The notes below the pieces were generated by a model. It did no database searches, was not told the DNA's origin, and saw only the letters and a program-made list of their open reading frames with translations. The translations under genes were made by a program, and so were the position numbers. A stretch of 64,000 nt of DNA from Candidatus Levybacteria bacterium RIFCSPHIGHO2_01_FULL_37_17 (GTDB taxonomy: Bacteria > Patescibacteriota > Microgenomatia > Levybacterales > UBA12049). Location: positions 212,648-276,647 of the forward strand of contig MFNL01000001.1 in NCBI GenBank assembly GCA_001782035.1. The letters are read 5' to 3'. Below are positions 18,945 through 59,577 of the stretch, one piece after another (position 1 is the first letter of the stretch; each line of letters opens with the position of its first letter).

Positions 18945-18950
18945 AGTAAG

Positions 18951-19021
18951 TCGGGGAGCCGGGAATTGAACCCGGACCACACGCACCCCATGCGCGCATT
19001 CTACCGGTAAACTACTCCCCG
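18951..19021 (-). tRNA. tRNA-Pro, anticodon GGG (inferred by manual folding)
   Basis: The minus-strand sequence is CGGGGAG-TA-GTTT-ACCGGTA-GAAT-G-CGCGC-AUGGGGU-GCGTG-TGGT-CCGGG-TTCAATT-CCCGG-CTCCCCG-A. The C1:G72 pair and the A73 discriminator are typical of bacterial tRNA-Pro. The T-arm reads GGTTCAATTCC and CCA is not encoded. Confidence 0.7.
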
Positions 19022-30944: not shown

Positions 30945-31955
30945 TTAGTCAAAATAAAGCTCCGGGTTTGCCTGTATTTTATCCCAACTAGTTTCTTTGC
31001 CAATGAGTGTGGCTGCTGCACCAATCATAGCTGCGTTGTCTGTGCACAGCTGCTTTTCGGGTACGAGAAGCGGAATTTTTAATTTCAAACTTCTAATTTC
31101 TAATTCAAACTTATCACGGAGAGTTTGATTTGCGGCAACACCTCCGCCAAGAAGAATGGACTTTGCGCCAAATTCTTTAGTAGCTTTTAAAGTTTTAGTA
31201 ACTAAGACATCCACAATTGCAGTCTGTACAGAAGCAGATATATTTTCAAGGTTCGGAGCCCTGCCAGCAGAATCCATTTTTTGAACTTCCCTAAAAACGG
31301 CTGTTTTTAAACCGCTGAAACTGAAATCATAATCAGCGGAATGCATTAAGGGTCTTGGAAATTTAAAAATATCTTTTCCCTTTTTTGCCAACTCTTCAAT
31401 TTTTGGTCCTGCTGGATAAGGAAGCCCTAGAAGCCTTCCGGTTTTATCTAAAGCCTCTCCGGCAGCATCGTCTCTTGTACCACCAAGCCACTTTAAACTT
31501 TTGCTGCCTTTCATCAATACAAGGTCGGTATGTCCTCCTGAAACAACAAGGGCAATTGCGGGAAACTCAATATCCCGCTTTTCTATAAAATTGGCATAAA
31601 TATGGCCGAACAAATGATTGACAGGAATAATTGGCTTTTTCCAAGCATATGCATATGCTTTTACTGTTTCAACTCCTACCAGAAGGGAGCCGATTAAGCC
31701 GGGACCAACAGTTACTGCCAGTTTGTCGATGTTGTTTTGTGAGGACTTAGATTCTTCGAGTGCTTGCTTTATAACTGGAATAATATATTTTAGCTGTTCT
31801 CTTGCAGCAGCTTCAGGTATTACTCCGCCTGTTTTGCTATGAAGCGGAAGCGAAGTTGCAACAACGTTAGATAATAATCTTAGTGTCACTCCTTCGGCTT
31901 CTATTACCGAAGCTCCCGTTTCATCGCAGCTTGTCTCAACAGCAAGGATTCTCAT
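30945..31955 (-). CDS. tsaD: tRNA N6-adenosine threonylcarbamoyltransferase TsaD (Kae1/Gcp)
   Basis: The sequence MRILAVETSCDETGASV.. and the His-His metal site ..HLFGHIY.. match the ASKHA fold. Confidence 0.9.
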   Translation of the reverse strand: MRILAVETSCDETGASVIEAEGVTLRLLSNVVATSLPLHSKTGGVIPEAAAREQLKYIIPVIKQALEESKSSQNNIDKLAVTVGPGLIGSLLVGVETVKAYAYAWKKPIIPVNHLFGHIYANFIEKRDIEFPAIALVVSGGHTDLVLMKGSKSLKWLGGTRDDAAGEALDKTGRLLGLPYPAGPKIEELAKKGKDIFKFPRPLMHSADYDFSFSGLKTAVFREVQKMDSAGRAPNLENISASVQTAIVDVLVTKTLKATKEFGAKSILLGGGVAANQTLRDKFELEIRSLKLKIPLLVPEKQLCTDNAAMIGAAATLIGKETSWDKIQANPELYFD

Positions 31956-56253: not shown

Positions 56254-57075
56254 ATGAAAGCTCTATTTATAGGAGCAGTATTTACCTTTCTATTTTATTT
56301 TTTTACCGCTTCTTCTTTTGCTGCAACATTATCTATAGATAATCCACCTTCCACGATTGATGAATCACAGGAATTTGACAGCAGCGTTAATTTTATATGT
56401 TCTGGGTGTAGTGATTCATATATTAGGGGAGTTTTTTATCCAAGCGGAAGCAGTTATTTTGGATACACACAAGATAATAGCGGAAATTGGAGTAACGCGT
56501 CTGGAAGCAATTGCACATCATTTTATAAGATTTCTCAAGCTGAATTACAGAGTGGAAGTTGGAGTGGAACTTTGAAGTTTAAACCAGATCCTGAAAGTTC
56601 ATACTATAATGGACCAGGAGAATATTCTTTTAAAATAGGAAGATACACCTCAAGTTGTAGTTCATCTTCTGTTACTTGGTCTGACGAGAAAACGATTGCT
56701 ATATCGGGCCCAACGCCGACACCTACCAATTCACCGACCCCAACTTCTGAGCTAACTGTAACTAATACTCCCACTTCAACAAAGACTCCAACTCCAACCA
56801 AAACACCTACGCCTACTAAATCTCCAACCCCCACCAAGAAACCAAGTCCAACAAGCTCAAGTGAGCAAAATATTCTTGGTACATCTTCAGAAACGAGCAA
56901 TGCTCCTACAAAATCAGAGGTTAAAATAGCTTCGGCAAGCGGAGCGGATTTAGCGGGGGGCATTTTCATTGGGGCGGGAATTGTTTTTGCATTTCTTTGT
57001 GGTATAGTTATTTTCTGGCCAAAAATAAAAACTTATATTGACAAAAATGGACAAGATAGTAACTCAGACAGTTGA
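56254..57075 (+). CDS. cell-surface protein with a Pro/Thr-rich repeat linker and a C-terminal TM anchor
   Basis: A signal peptide, a Cys-containing globular domain, (PTPTK)n repeats and a C-terminal hydrophobic helix plus charged tail are present. Confidence 0.4.
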   Translation: MKALFIGAVFTFLFYFFTASSFAATLSIDNPPSTIDESQEFDSSVNFICSGCSDSYIRGVFYPSGSSYFGYTQDNSGNWSNASGSNCTSFYKISQAELQSGSWSGTLKFKPDPESSYYNGPGEYSFKIGRYTSSCSSSSVTWSDEKTIAISGPTPTPTNSPTPTSELTVTNTPTSTKTPTPTKTPTPTKSPTPTKKPSPTSSSEQNILGTSSETSNAPTKSEVKIASASGADLAGGIFIGAGIVFAFLCGIVIFWPKIKTYIDKNGQDSNSDS

Positions 57076-57472
57076 ACAAACAAAAGAACTTGGGAAGGAA
57101 TTAGCAAAAACATTAAAAAAAGGCGATATCATATGTCTGTATGGTAATCTTGGAAGCGGGAAAACCTCTTTTGCCCAGGGCTTAGCAGAGGGCTTAGGGA
57201 TTGAAAGAAGGATAATCTCTCCGACTTTTATAATTATTAGAAGCTACAAAACAAAAAACGTCAAATTTTACCATATAGATTTATATAGAACATCAACCAA
57301 AAATGATTTGATTTCACTAGGTATTGACCAACTTTTAAAAAGTAGCGATGCAATTTTAACAATTGAATGGGCTGAGAAACTTAATAAATTCTTGCCAAAA
57401 AAAAGAATTGATCTACACTTTAAACAGACAGATGATAATAGCCGGGAAATAACTAAAAATAAATATGACTAG
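57038..57472 (+). CDS. tsaE: tRNA threonylcarbamoyladenosine biosynthesis protein TsaE (YjeE)
   Basis: The P-loop reads ..ICLYGNLGSGKTSFAQG.. and ..SPTF.I...Y.. is present. Confidence 0.75.
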   Translation: MTKMDKIVTQTVEQTKELGKELAKTLKKGDIICLYGNLGSGKTSFAQGLAEGLGIERRIISPTFIIIRSYKTKNVKFYHIDLYRTSTKNDLISLGIDQLLKSSDAILTIEWAEKLNKFLPKKRIDLHFKQTDDNSREITKNKYD

Positions 57473-58364
57473 CCAGGTTGATAAAGCTGTTTCTGTTTTA
57501 AATAAGGGTGGAATAATAATTTTTCCAACCGACACTGCATTTGGAATAGGATGCAGGATTGACAAGGCAGAGTCAGTTGAAAGACTTTTTGAGATTAGAA
57601 AAAGGCCAAAAAATCAAGCGACCCCCGTACTTGTATCATCCATTGTAATGGCGAGAAATTACTTTTTAGAGATTCCTAAAGAGGTTGAACACAAGTTAGT
57701 GGAAAAATATTGGCCCGGTGCACTTACAATTGTTCTTCCTGCAAAAACTAAGAAAGTGCCCGAGCTTGTTCGAGGCATGCAGAAGAGTGTTGGAATCAGG
57801 GTACCGAATAATCCAACAATTCTTGAAATAATAAAAAAGACAGGAGTACCCATCCTTGGTCCCTCGGCAAACATGCACGGGGAAAATACTCCATTTAAGC
57901 TAGAAGATTTAGATAAAGAGTTAGTAAGTAAGGTGGATTTTGTTGTTAAAGGTGAAGTGGCACTCAAAAATATTTCAACAGTGATAGATTGTTCGGTAAA
58001 GCCTTGGAAAATATTGAGGCAAGGCGCGATAAAAATTTCTGACACTGTAAAAAATATTCTTTTTATTGATACTTCTGATAACCAAAAAATCGAATTAGGA
58101 TTAGTAATTGAAGCTAAAAAATATAAAGAGATTGTTTCACTGACAGCTTTAAAAAGAGAGATAGTATTAAATCTAATTGATAAGATTATTGCAAAGCACA
58201 ACTTAAATTTAAAAGAAATAACAGAAATAAAGGTAAATAATGGCCCTGGTTCTTTTACGGGTCTTAGGGCGGGAATTTCTATTGCAAATGCTTTAGCAAG
58301 TATTTTAAATATACCTATAAATGGTAAAAAGATTGGAGATTTGGAAAATGCCGTATATAATTAA
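57465..58364 (+). CDS. fusion protein: TsaC/Sua5/YrdC domain (N-terminal) + TsaB/YeaZ-like domain (C-terminal)
   Basis: The N-terminus has ..VLNKGGIIIFPTDTAFGIGC.., ..YWPGALTIVL.. and ..GIRVPN.. (YrdC). The C-terminus has ..LFIDTSDNQKIELGLV.. and ..GPGSFTGLRAGISIANALA.. (TsaB). Confidence 0.65.
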   Translation: MTSQVDKAVSVLNKGGIIIFPTDTAFGIGCRIDKAESVERLFEIRKRPKNQATPVLVSSIVMARNYFLEIPKEVEHKLVEKYWPGALTIVLPAKTKKVPELVRGMQKSVGIRVPNNPTILEIIKKTGVPILGPSANMHGENTPFKLEDLDKELVSKVDFVVKGEVALKNISTVIDCSVKPWKILRQGAIKISDTVKNILFIDTSDNQKIELGLVIEAKKYKEIVSLTALKREIVLNLIDKIIAKHNLNLKEITEIKVNNGPGSFTGLRAGISIANALASILNIPINGKKIGDLENAVYN

Positions 58365-58367
58365 ATT

Positions 58368-59309
58368 ATGCTTAAATTGTTGCGTCATATATTAACACCA
58401 CAAGCAACTAATAATTACAGAGCAAGAATTCTGCATCCTCAGTTTCTAATCTTAGCTATCCTCTTGTTTTTTGCATCCGGGATTCTTATGTCCTTTGTTA
58501 GAACAAATTTCCCTTCCGTTTTGGGCATAACATCGAATGTTTCAACCAACGAGTTACTAGTTCTTACAAATCAAAAGCGCCTAGAGGTAGGTTTGTCCCC
58601 CTTAACGATGAACTCCCAGCTTGAGGTGGCAGCACAGAATAAAGCAAATGATATGCTTGCAAAAAACTACTGGTCACACATTGCTCCTGATGGCACTACC
58701 CCTTGGTACTTTATAAAAAATTCTGGATATAGCTATATTTATGCAGGAGAAAACCTGGCACGAGGTTACAATAGTGCAAACGATGTTTTAAATGCATGGC
58801 TTGCAAGCCCGACACATAGAGATAACATCTTATCCAATAAATATCAAAACATTGGCTTTGCTGTTGTAACAGGAAATTTAACCGGTGAAGAAACGGTGCT
58901 GGTAGTGGAAATGTTTGGGAGTACAGGAGCGCCTGCTATAAATAAAGTTGCGTTGCAAACAGCTCAAAACATAAGTCCAACACCCGTAGTTGTAGCTCAA
59001 GAAGCAATTTCTCAACCCAGCCCAACCTTAACCTATACTCCAACCCCAACCCCGTTGCCTTTGGTAACAACTACAGGTAGTCAACTTTCAGCTAATTCAC
59101 AGATAAAGCCTCTTATTAATTCACAAACCTTCTCATCTAATATAGCAACATTAACAGTCGCCTTGTTCATGTTCGTTTTGATCTTGGATGTAGTAATTAT
59201 AGAAAGAAAAAAGATTTTAAGATTTGTGGGACACAATCTCGACCATTTTATATTCTTCGGCATGATTTTAGCAGTTATTTTATTTTTACTTAAAGGAAGT
59301 ATAATTTGA
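58368..59309 (+). CDS. CAP (SCP/PR-1-like, YkwD-type) domain protein with N- and C-terminal TM segments
   Basis: The CAP motifs ..LTNQKRLEVGLSPLTMNSQL..A.., ..YWSHI.. and ..GENLA.GY.. are present, along with a PT-rich linker. Confidence 0.6.
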   Translation: MLKLLRHILTPQATNNYRARILHPQFLILAILLFFASGILMSFVRTNFPSVLGITSNVSTNELLVLTNQKRLEVGLSPLTMNSQLEVAAQNKANDMLAKNYWSHIAPDGTTPWYFIKNSGYSYIYAGENLARGYNSANDVLNAWLASPTHRDNILSNKYQNIGFAVVTGNLTGEETVLVVEMFGSTGAPAINKVALQTAQNISPTPVVVAQEAISQPSPTLTYTPTPTPLPLVTTTGSQLSANSQIKPLINSQTFSSNIATLTVALFMFVLILDVVIIERKKILRFVGHNLDHFIFFGMILAVILFLLKGSII

Positions 59310-59310
59310 T

Positions 59311-59577
59311 ATGAAAAAGTTCTTAAAACATTTTGGATATTATTCTTCAATGATTCTAATCTTTACCTTGGGCTTTCTGGCATCCACAGTATCTTATCCT
59401 AACTTACCGTTAGTTTTTACAGTCCTAATACTTACTGTTGTATTTTATGTAATTTGGGGAATAGCGCATCACAAGATAAATCATGATTTAAGCACCAAAA
59501 TTCTTCTTGAGTATCTACTAATAGGATTTTTAGGCATTTCTATAATCTTCTTCATAATTGTTGGGGGAAAAGTATGA
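59311..59577 (+). CDS. small hydrophobic membrane protein (88 aa, 2-3 TM)
   Basis: The gene is coupled to the downstream GT2 genes. It may be a GtrA-like flippase accessory protein, but this is unproven. Confidence 0.3.
   Translation: MKKFLKHFGYYSSMILIFTLGFLASTVSYPNLPLVFTVLILTVVFYVIWGIAHHKINHDLSTKILLEYLLIGFLGISIIFFIIVGGKV

Follow-up and report, generated by a model that had tools for sequence, protein, structure and literature searches.

A natural gene fusion of TsaC with a half-size TsaB in the t6A gene cluster of Levybacteria and their relatives

Can the enzyme that makes the labile intermediate of a universal tRNA modification be joined in one polypeptide to a subunit of the complex that receives it, and what would such a join achieve? 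The question is raised by a stretch of 64,000 nucleotides from Candidatus Levybacteria bacterium RIFCSPHIGHO2_01_FULL_37_17 (candidate phyla radiation; contig MFNL01000001.1, positions 212,648 to 276,647; hereafter the window, whose own numbering is used below). In it an open reading frame (ORF) of 299 amino acids (aa) at 57465-58364, stop codon included and on the forward strand like all features below unless stated, had been read in an earlier note, made from the letters alone, as TsaC followed by about half of TsaB. TsaC makes threonylcarbamoyl-AMP (TC-AMP) from threonine, bicarbonate and ATP, and TC-AMP is the labile intermediate of the universal tRNA modification N6-threonylcarbamoyladenosine (t6A). 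Profile searches, homologue searches and an AlphaFold2 model confirmed that the fusion of TsaC with a half-size TsaB (mini-TsaB) is real and conserved. We consider it probable that this is a natural gene fusion of tsaC with a lineage-specific, half-size tsaB, which tethers TsaC to TsaD by way of mini-TsaB.

The N-terminal part (aa 1-192, 57465-58040) is a YrdC-fold threonylcarbamoyl-AMP synthase domain of the short TsaC1 type, which has no SUA5 domain. The TsaC equivalog model TIGR00057 matched aa 3-192 at 176.6 bits (cutoff 123.2), as expected of a complete TsaC domain, and PF01300 aligned at aa 11-187 over model positions 2-178 of 178 (E = 7e-51). Foldseek searches of the PDB placed aa 1-186 on Sua5, TsaC2 and YrdC structures with a root-mean-square deviation (rmsd) of 1.4-1.6 Å over 186 columns. 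The residues T22-D23-T24, R47, R112 and S134-A135-N136 are invariant in 119 fused homologues. The ATP-binding tetrad of TsaC is known as KxR / SxN (PMC6004061); its KxR motif reads RKR (R45-K46-R47) in the window protein, while some relatives with separate genes have Lys in first place (KKR in locus L001). Judged by these residues, the TsaC domain looks catalytically competent.

The C-terminal part (aa 197-299, 58053-58361) consists of an ASKHA N-lobe and a conserved tail. The TsaB model TIGR03725 matched aa 198-286 with model positions 1-89 of 212 only, at 63.7 bits for the whole protein (E = 2e-17) and 66.9 bits for the isolated C-terminal piece (E = 2e-18); both scores lie slightly below the equivalog cutoff of 69.3 bits because only 89 of the 212 model positions exist. 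PF00814 was found at aa 231-285 (E = 3e-12, 47-50 bits, cutoff 24.8). Models of the catalytic paralogues TsaD and Kae1 gave this domain only 22-29 bits, and it is therefore TsaB-like rather than TsaD-like. All 10 of 10 PDB sequence matches to the C-terminal piece were YeaZ/TsaB chains, aligned at residues ~4-92, and Foldseek superposed the last ~90 residues on the TsaB N-lobes of P. aeruginosa, Salmonella, Vibrio, E. coli and T. maritima (rmsd 1.0-2.7 Å). The earlier note's assignments of a YrdC/Sua5-type TsaC domain and of a TsaB/YeaZ-like ASKHA N-terminal half in the last ~110 residues, shortened to about half the usual TsaB length, were thus borne out by the profile check that it proposed.

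In the AlphaFold2 model this domain has β-strands at residues 197-202, 208-215 and 218-225, an α-helix at 230-244, a strand at 254-257, a second helix at 264-281 and a short strand; the predicted order β1-β2-β3-α1-β4-α2-β5 is that of the ASKHA N-lobe core. The model shows helices α1 and α2 with high confidence, and it is here that the domain is most conserved in the alignment, with peaks at L235 and L242 in α1 and along T265-L281 in α2. The two-lobed ASKHA fold of N-lobe, C-lobe and C-tail is not formed: C-lobe and C-terminal tail are absent, the ORF ending 13 residues beyond TIGR03725 model position 89. There is no space for a second TsaB half, since the next gene begins 4 nt past the fusion stop. 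The ASKHA part also has no HxxxH motif and no metal or nucleotide site. The domain is a TsaB homologue that lacks two features of the curated family, namely the two-lobed architecture and a score above the equivalog cutoff, and it is best named a minimal, TsaB-like variant whose mode of action is probably that of TsaB or Pcc1.

Neighbouring genes here overlap or abut, and one base error could join them, in which case the fusion would be an artefact of sequencing, assembly or gene calling, or else a recent read-through of a pseudogene-like kind. The reading frame is unbroken from the TsaC part into the TsaB part, and the frameshift between two genes that the earlier note had allowed for was not found. 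Contigs that were assembled independently, 18 in all, encode the identical 299-aa product between unchanged neighbours; they come from four separate data sources, namely NCBI (a 218-kb contig of GCA_001782495.1), two JGI metagenomes and one ENA assembly. A homologue search with the fusion among 5.8 billion proteins returned 3183 relatives. Of the best 120, which were analysed, all are 280-337 aa long save one of 446 aa, and 119 carry PF01300 and PF00814 together at 48-66% identity. There are thus at least 119 distinct fused homologues, with differing linkers. Those with names belong to Candidatus Levybacteria, Microgenomates or Patescibacteria and are annotated "L-threonylcarbamoyladenylate synthase". 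With the former tsaB start codon replaced as well (see below), we hold an artefact to be almost inconceivable, and refuted by the independent assemblies.

The 446-aa relative (P0050; locus L005, 342-1682, on a 4.4-kb Logan contig) is a tsaE-tsaC-mini-tsaB triple fusion. It was seen once only, and may be either a true fusion of three genes or the product of a sequencing error where tsaE and tsaC overlap. Two other candidate architectures were rejected. The short proteins P0255 and P0259 (186-192 aa) are fusions ending at contig ends, and a 422-aa ORF of candidate division WWE3 (L067, 5962-7227, LCBB01000005.1), considered as TsaC with a full-length TsaB, carries an unrelated membrane-anchored extension. 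In that ORF the TsaC domain is followed by ~230 in-frame residues with a hydrophobic segment and no TsaB similarity; the protein may be a membrane-anchored TsaC variant.

The junction itself is informative. In split relatives the two genes abut: the tsaB ATG overlaps the tsaC stop in L001 (ATGA), and a 2-nt gap lies between them in L004. The window sequence reads through at this point (...GAIKISDTVKNILFIDTS...), and AAA replaces the former tsaB start codon. The resulting linker of ~11 aa (residues 186-196, QGAIKISDTVK; 58020-58052) stems from the former 3' end of tsaC and the former 5' end of mini-tsaB. Among fused homologues the distance from the TsaC end (W-x-[ILV]-[ILV]-R-x-G) to strand β1 ranges from 3 to 34 residues of unrelated sequence, with a Met kept in the linker segment of only 11 of 105. 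Such variation in length and sequence is in keeping with a flexible tether and speaks against an evolved rigid interface. The AlphaFold2 model, built with 119 homologues, has a mean predicted local distance difference test score (pLDDT) of 92.3 and a predicted template modelling score (pTM) of 0.67; around residues ~186-196 pLDDT falls to about 77, in keeping with two domains joined by a linker.

The order of domains invites comparison with HypF, TobZ and the Pandoravirus TsaN, in which a YrdC-fold adenylate-forming domain and an ASKHA-family domain likewise share one chain, and in HypF and TobZ this juxtaposition channels a labile carbamoyl-adenylate. On this analogy the window protein would be a self-contained carbamoyltransferase, YrdC-like plus Kae1-like, with a non-tRNA substrate. 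HypF structures did align over about 295 columns and TIGR00143 (hypF) matched weakly (E = 1e-4), but the rmsd was about 14 Å, the hypF score was 20.7 bits against a cutoff of 466, and the best-scoring families were the t6A equivalogs TsaC and TsaB. The ASKHA domains of HypF, TobZ and TsaN are complete catalytic transferases packed rigidly on YrdC, whereas that of the fusion is a non-catalytic half-domain on a variable linker, an N-lobe that lacks the C-lobe as well as any metal or nucleotide site, and would recruit a separate TsaD. The operon also contains tsaE, and in the split ancestors tsaC and tsaB are ordinary genes. A HypF-like enzyme is very improbable, and effectively refuted by the absence of a catalytic Kae1-like domain.

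A second analogy is with Sua5/TsaC2, in which the N-terminal TsaC domain is likewise linked to an α/β domain of about 100-130 aa at the C-terminus; Foldseek aligned Sua5 over both domains. The linker and SUA5 domain of Sua5 are essential for TC-AMP synthesis (PMC6004061), and by the same token the C-terminal domain might act in cis on TsaC as a SUA5-like regulatory or lid module, TsaD then being a Qri7-like homodimer. Yet the fusion gave no SUA5 match (PF03481) at E <= 1, and its C-terminal domain is TsaB-like by sequence and fold and not a SUA5 Rossmann fold. Superposition of both domains on Sua5 gave an rmsd of ~14 Å, so the packing is not Sua5-like, and the linker, variable in length and sequence, lacks the conserved PGM and HY motifs. 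The domain is, moreover, a separate protein in most relatives and follows tsaE, not tsaC, in Blackburnbacteria, and the retention of tsaE implies a cycle of the TsaBDE type. We consider a module acting in cis improbable.

Half-length TsaB is not peculiar to the fused proteins. A word-index search with the C-terminal 109 aa gave as its best 120 matches only proteins of 90-132 aa with PF00814 alone; such stand-alone forms are labelled TsaB at JGI and hypothetical at NCBI. An exhaustive HMMER search with a mini-TsaB profile among 1.84 billion representatives at 50% identity returned 5703 matches at E <= 1e-10. Among the best 150, about 145 stand alone, with 94-147 aa, and 5 are fused to TsaC (two of them cut short at contig ends); a full-length TsaB layout was seen in none of these 150. 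Mini-TsaB is thus a large family in bacteria of the Microgenomates group (Levy-, Gottesman- and Blackburnbacteria), in which the ~105-aa form is standard and usually a separate gene immediately behind tsaC in one operon. Its taxonomic breadth is given by the named matches and loci, which carry these three names, "Microgenomates" or "Patescibacteria group". The family alignment has an invariant GPGSFTG, an invariant Asn and an invariant C-terminal Tyr, a tail of the form IP[IV]NGKKxG....PxY, a mean column identity of 47% and the same terminus throughout. Because motifs and C-terminus are conserved, we regard mini-TsaB as a selected, defined short protein rather than a random truncation.

These data also bear on whether mini-TsaB is a vestige with no functional meaning while a full-length TsaB elsewhere in the genome does the work. 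The C-lobe and C-tail are reported to be important for TsaE and tRNA contacts in model systems, and our TsaB scans covered the 64-kb window and ~180 kb from 19 relatives. No second TsaB-like ORF appeared in any of these loci, and a six-frame hmmsearch of the window with the mini-TsaB profile matched the fusion and TsaD and nothing else. Levy-, Gottesman- and Blackburnbacteria share the short form, which is strongly conserved in more than 145 clusters at 50% identity and occupies the canonical operon place beside tsaE and tsaC; a decaying remnant would not hold such column identity and a fixed terminus. A vestige is therefore unlikely.

Comparison of loci indicates how a separate mini-tsaB came to be fused. 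In four split relatives (L001-L004) the operon reads FtsX - M23 peptidase - ~270-aa protein - tsaE - tsaC - mini-tsaB - CAP - 88-aa gene, with products of 193-194 aa (TsaC) and 102-106 aa (mini-TsaB), and matches that of the window. In the window, as in 18 of 19 related loci whose sequence reaches far enough upstream, a mini-tsaB domain lies immediately 3' of tsaE (and tsaC). In Blackburnbacteria (L083, 1367-2124, MHCC01000012.1) mini-tsaB directly follows tsaE, the canonical tsaB position, and tsaC is elsewhere; the position of tsaC in the operon is thus not universal in the Microgenomates group. In the survey of related genomes that the earlier note had suggested, the fusion was found in the homologues counted above, and the split form was commoner among the GTDB species representatives examined by ORF analysis (split in L007, L008 and L010-L019; fused in L006, a Gottesmanbacteria locus, and L009). 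In one JGI sample (3300025317) a fused-type organism occurs together with a split-type one. A neighbour-joining tree of 236 mini-TsaB domains requires at least 29 changes between the two states, against ~79 with shuffled labels; the count is inflated by tree noise, the domain being short. The fused and split states are phylogenetically clustered yet interleaved, and more than one fusion or fission event is likely. As the aligned junctions show, the fusion arose through loss of the stop/start junction between abutting tsaC and mini-tsaB genes, and the fused state is patchy and recurrent.

Two further observations concern these loci. Two of the split-type loci (L008, 5304-5953, and L012, 563-1200) have ~650 bp between tsaE and tsaC, presumably an extra gene, where these two genes overlap in the other loci. 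Metagenome-assembled genomes titled "uncultured Gammaproteobacteria bacterium" (TPA_asm; L007, L009, L011, L016, L019 and L043) carry tsaE-tsaC-mini-tsaB loci of the Microgenomates type with 45-62% identity to the window, and their titles look like taxonomic mislabels or placeholders.

How might the tethered protein work? In known complexes TsaB and TsaD meet through helices α1 and α2 of their N-terminal domains, which form a four-helix bundle that Pcc1 mimics on Kae1, and TsaE touches both TsaB domains (PMC6009658). Because this published interface sits on helices that mini-TsaB retains, it is reasonable to propose that the fusion couples TC-AMP synthesis to the transferase complex. By homology, mini-TsaB would be the TsaD-binding subunit, attached through α1 and α2 in the manner of Pcc1, and in the fused form the TsaC active site would sit on a flexible tether of ~11 residues beside the TsaD-TsaB heterodimer. 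TsaE, presumably translationally coupled upstream, would carry out its ATP-dependent reset of the complex, just as it does in other bacteria. The half-life of TC-AMP is 3.5 min (PMC6004061), and transient proximity of TsaC and TsaD has been postulated, not demonstrated (PMC10484737; PMC3571937). The fusion probably secures a 1:1 stoichiometry and proximity for the hand-over of TC-AMP. Since closely related organisms use the split form, it is likely to be a tolerated, mild or near-neutral improvement and not an obligatory new mechanism.

Several points weigh against the tethering of TsaC to TsaD through mini-TsaB. The putative interaction of mini-TsaB with TsaD is drawn from homology only. In T. 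maritima, tRNA binding is lost once the TsaB C-tail, which promotes it, has been deleted (cited in PMC11648230); mini-TsaB is devoid of the parts implicated in contacts with TsaE and tRNA, so the complex must work somewhat differently or be compensated. A separate full-length TsaB may lie outside the stretches scanned, the TIGR03725 score falls short of its cutoff, and the first residue of the KxR motif is Arg in the window protein, a conservative change from Lys. Finally, the pTM value together with the variable linker gives no sign of a fixed interface between TsaC and mini-TsaB, so that channelling as such has no structural support.

A more far-reaching form of the proposal is possible but doubtful. 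The t6A machinery of Microgenomates may have been rebuilt around a Pcc1-sized TsaB that is hardly more than the helices docking on TsaD, with the fused TsaC as a stably tethered fourth subunit of a TsaC-B/D/E holoenzyme that hands TC-AMP over directly to TsaD, and with surfaces of TsaC or TsaD replacing the role of the TsaB tail in tRNA binding. If this were true, the TsaB C-lobe and tail would be dispensable, and the fusion would be the first natural, structurally tractable case of a TsaC physically attached to the bacterial transferase complex.

The tsaE gene for the P-loop ATPase subunit lies directly upstream of the fusion (57047-57472, ATG start; an alternative TTG is at 57038). Gene callers on identical contigs chose the ATG at 57047 with a product of 141 aa, which matched PF02367 (E = 3.9e-39) and TIGR00150 (128.8 bits, cutoff 60.1) and whose translation has a Walker A motif (GNLGSGKT) and an SPTF motif. 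The end of tsaE overlaps the start of the fusion ORF by 8 nt (57465-57472, ATGACTAG, read from the sequence), an overlap that the earlier note had already seen and that suggests translational coupling. The tsaD gene, for the catalytic threonylcarbamoyl transferase and presumed docking partner, is where that note had placed it (30945-31955, reverse strand), full length with 298.8 bits to PF00814 and a retained HxxxH motif (NHLFGH). The earlier note's claim that the t6A genes are clustered holds for tsaE, tsaC and tsaB only: tsaD is 26 kb from the tsaE-fusion pair, on the opposite strand and among unrelated neighbours (DUF192, cytidylyltransferase, RmuC).

As to the other neighbours, a 273-aa ORF (56254-57075) lies immediately 5' of tsaE and overlaps its start. 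A hydrophobic segment at the N-terminus is followed by a long Pro/Thr-rich stretch of the PTPTPT/TKTPTPTK type and a C-terminal hydrophobic anchor, and the protein gave no Pfam match; JGI and ENA call it, where the NCBI record of the identical sequence has two small ORFs instead (71 and 121 aa, one antisense). Downstream, a CAP/SCP-domain gene with membrane segments (58368-59309) begins 4 nt past the fusion stop and is followed by a gene for an 88-aa DUF5656 membrane protein (59311-59577). These two genes are always 3' of the t6A genes in relatives (L001-L005, L086-L089), a conserved synteny, yet with no obvious tie to tRNA modification. The sole tRNA gene found by ARAGORN in the window encodes tRNA-Pro(GGG) (18950-19021, reverse strand).

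Set against known systems, mini-TsaB shares with canonical TsaB (YeaZ; TIGR03725; PDB 4YDU, 3ZEU, 6S84, 6N9A) the sequence and fold of the N-lobe, GPGSFTGLR, helices α1 and α2, genetic linkage to tsaE and the lack of a catalytic metal site. It differs in size (~100 aa against 206-251 aa), in having no C-lobe and C-tail, in its own tail motif (NGKKxG....PxY) and, here, in its fusion to TsaC. Pcc1 of the archaeal and eukaryotic KEOPS complex is likewise a small non-catalytic subunit of ~80-100 aa, which attaches to the Kae1/TsaD N-lobe by a bundle of helices (PMC6009658), and mini-TsaB would be its analogue in function and size. The two are unrelated in fold and ancestry, mini-TsaB being a truncated TsaD paralogue. 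Catalogued t6A fusions are also Rosetta-stone joins among t6A components or their neighbours (yeaZ::rimI::ygjD, alr::yjeE, hydrolase::yeaZ, kae1::bud32 and tsaC::hemK; PMC3571937, PMC4615747), but none of them, HypF/TobZ and the Pandoravirus TsaN included, joins TsaC to a subunit of the TsaBDE complex. Reports of YrdC interacting directly with the YgjD complex were lacking, as PMC3571937 noted. In the full-text literature searched, which leaves out most subscription-journal papers, neither a TsaC-TsaB fusion nor a half-size TsaB nor t6A genes in Patescibacteria were found to be described. The fusion and mini-TsaB are apparently undescribed and form a variation on known machinery, not a new system.

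In t6A biochemistry, unstable TC-AMP may reach TsaD/Kae1 from TsaC/Sua5 either by diffusing freely or through transient docking. To our knowledge, no direct interaction between TsaC and TsaBDE has been established. The TsaC::TsaB and TsaE::TsaC::TsaB fusions indicate, as Rosetta-stone evidence, that the cell at least tolerates such proximity and possibly favours it, and cryo-EM or crystallography of all four activities together could start from these natural constructs. Mini-TsaB would independently define the N-lobe as the minimal functional core of TsaB, in parallel to Pcc1, and would call into question how general the roles reported for the TsaB C-lobe and C-tail are. Because the mini forms score under the TIGR03725 cutoff and are annotated as hypothetical or as L-threonylcarbamoyladenylate synthase, TsaB will seem to be missing from metabolic reconstructions and marker-gene sets of these genomes.

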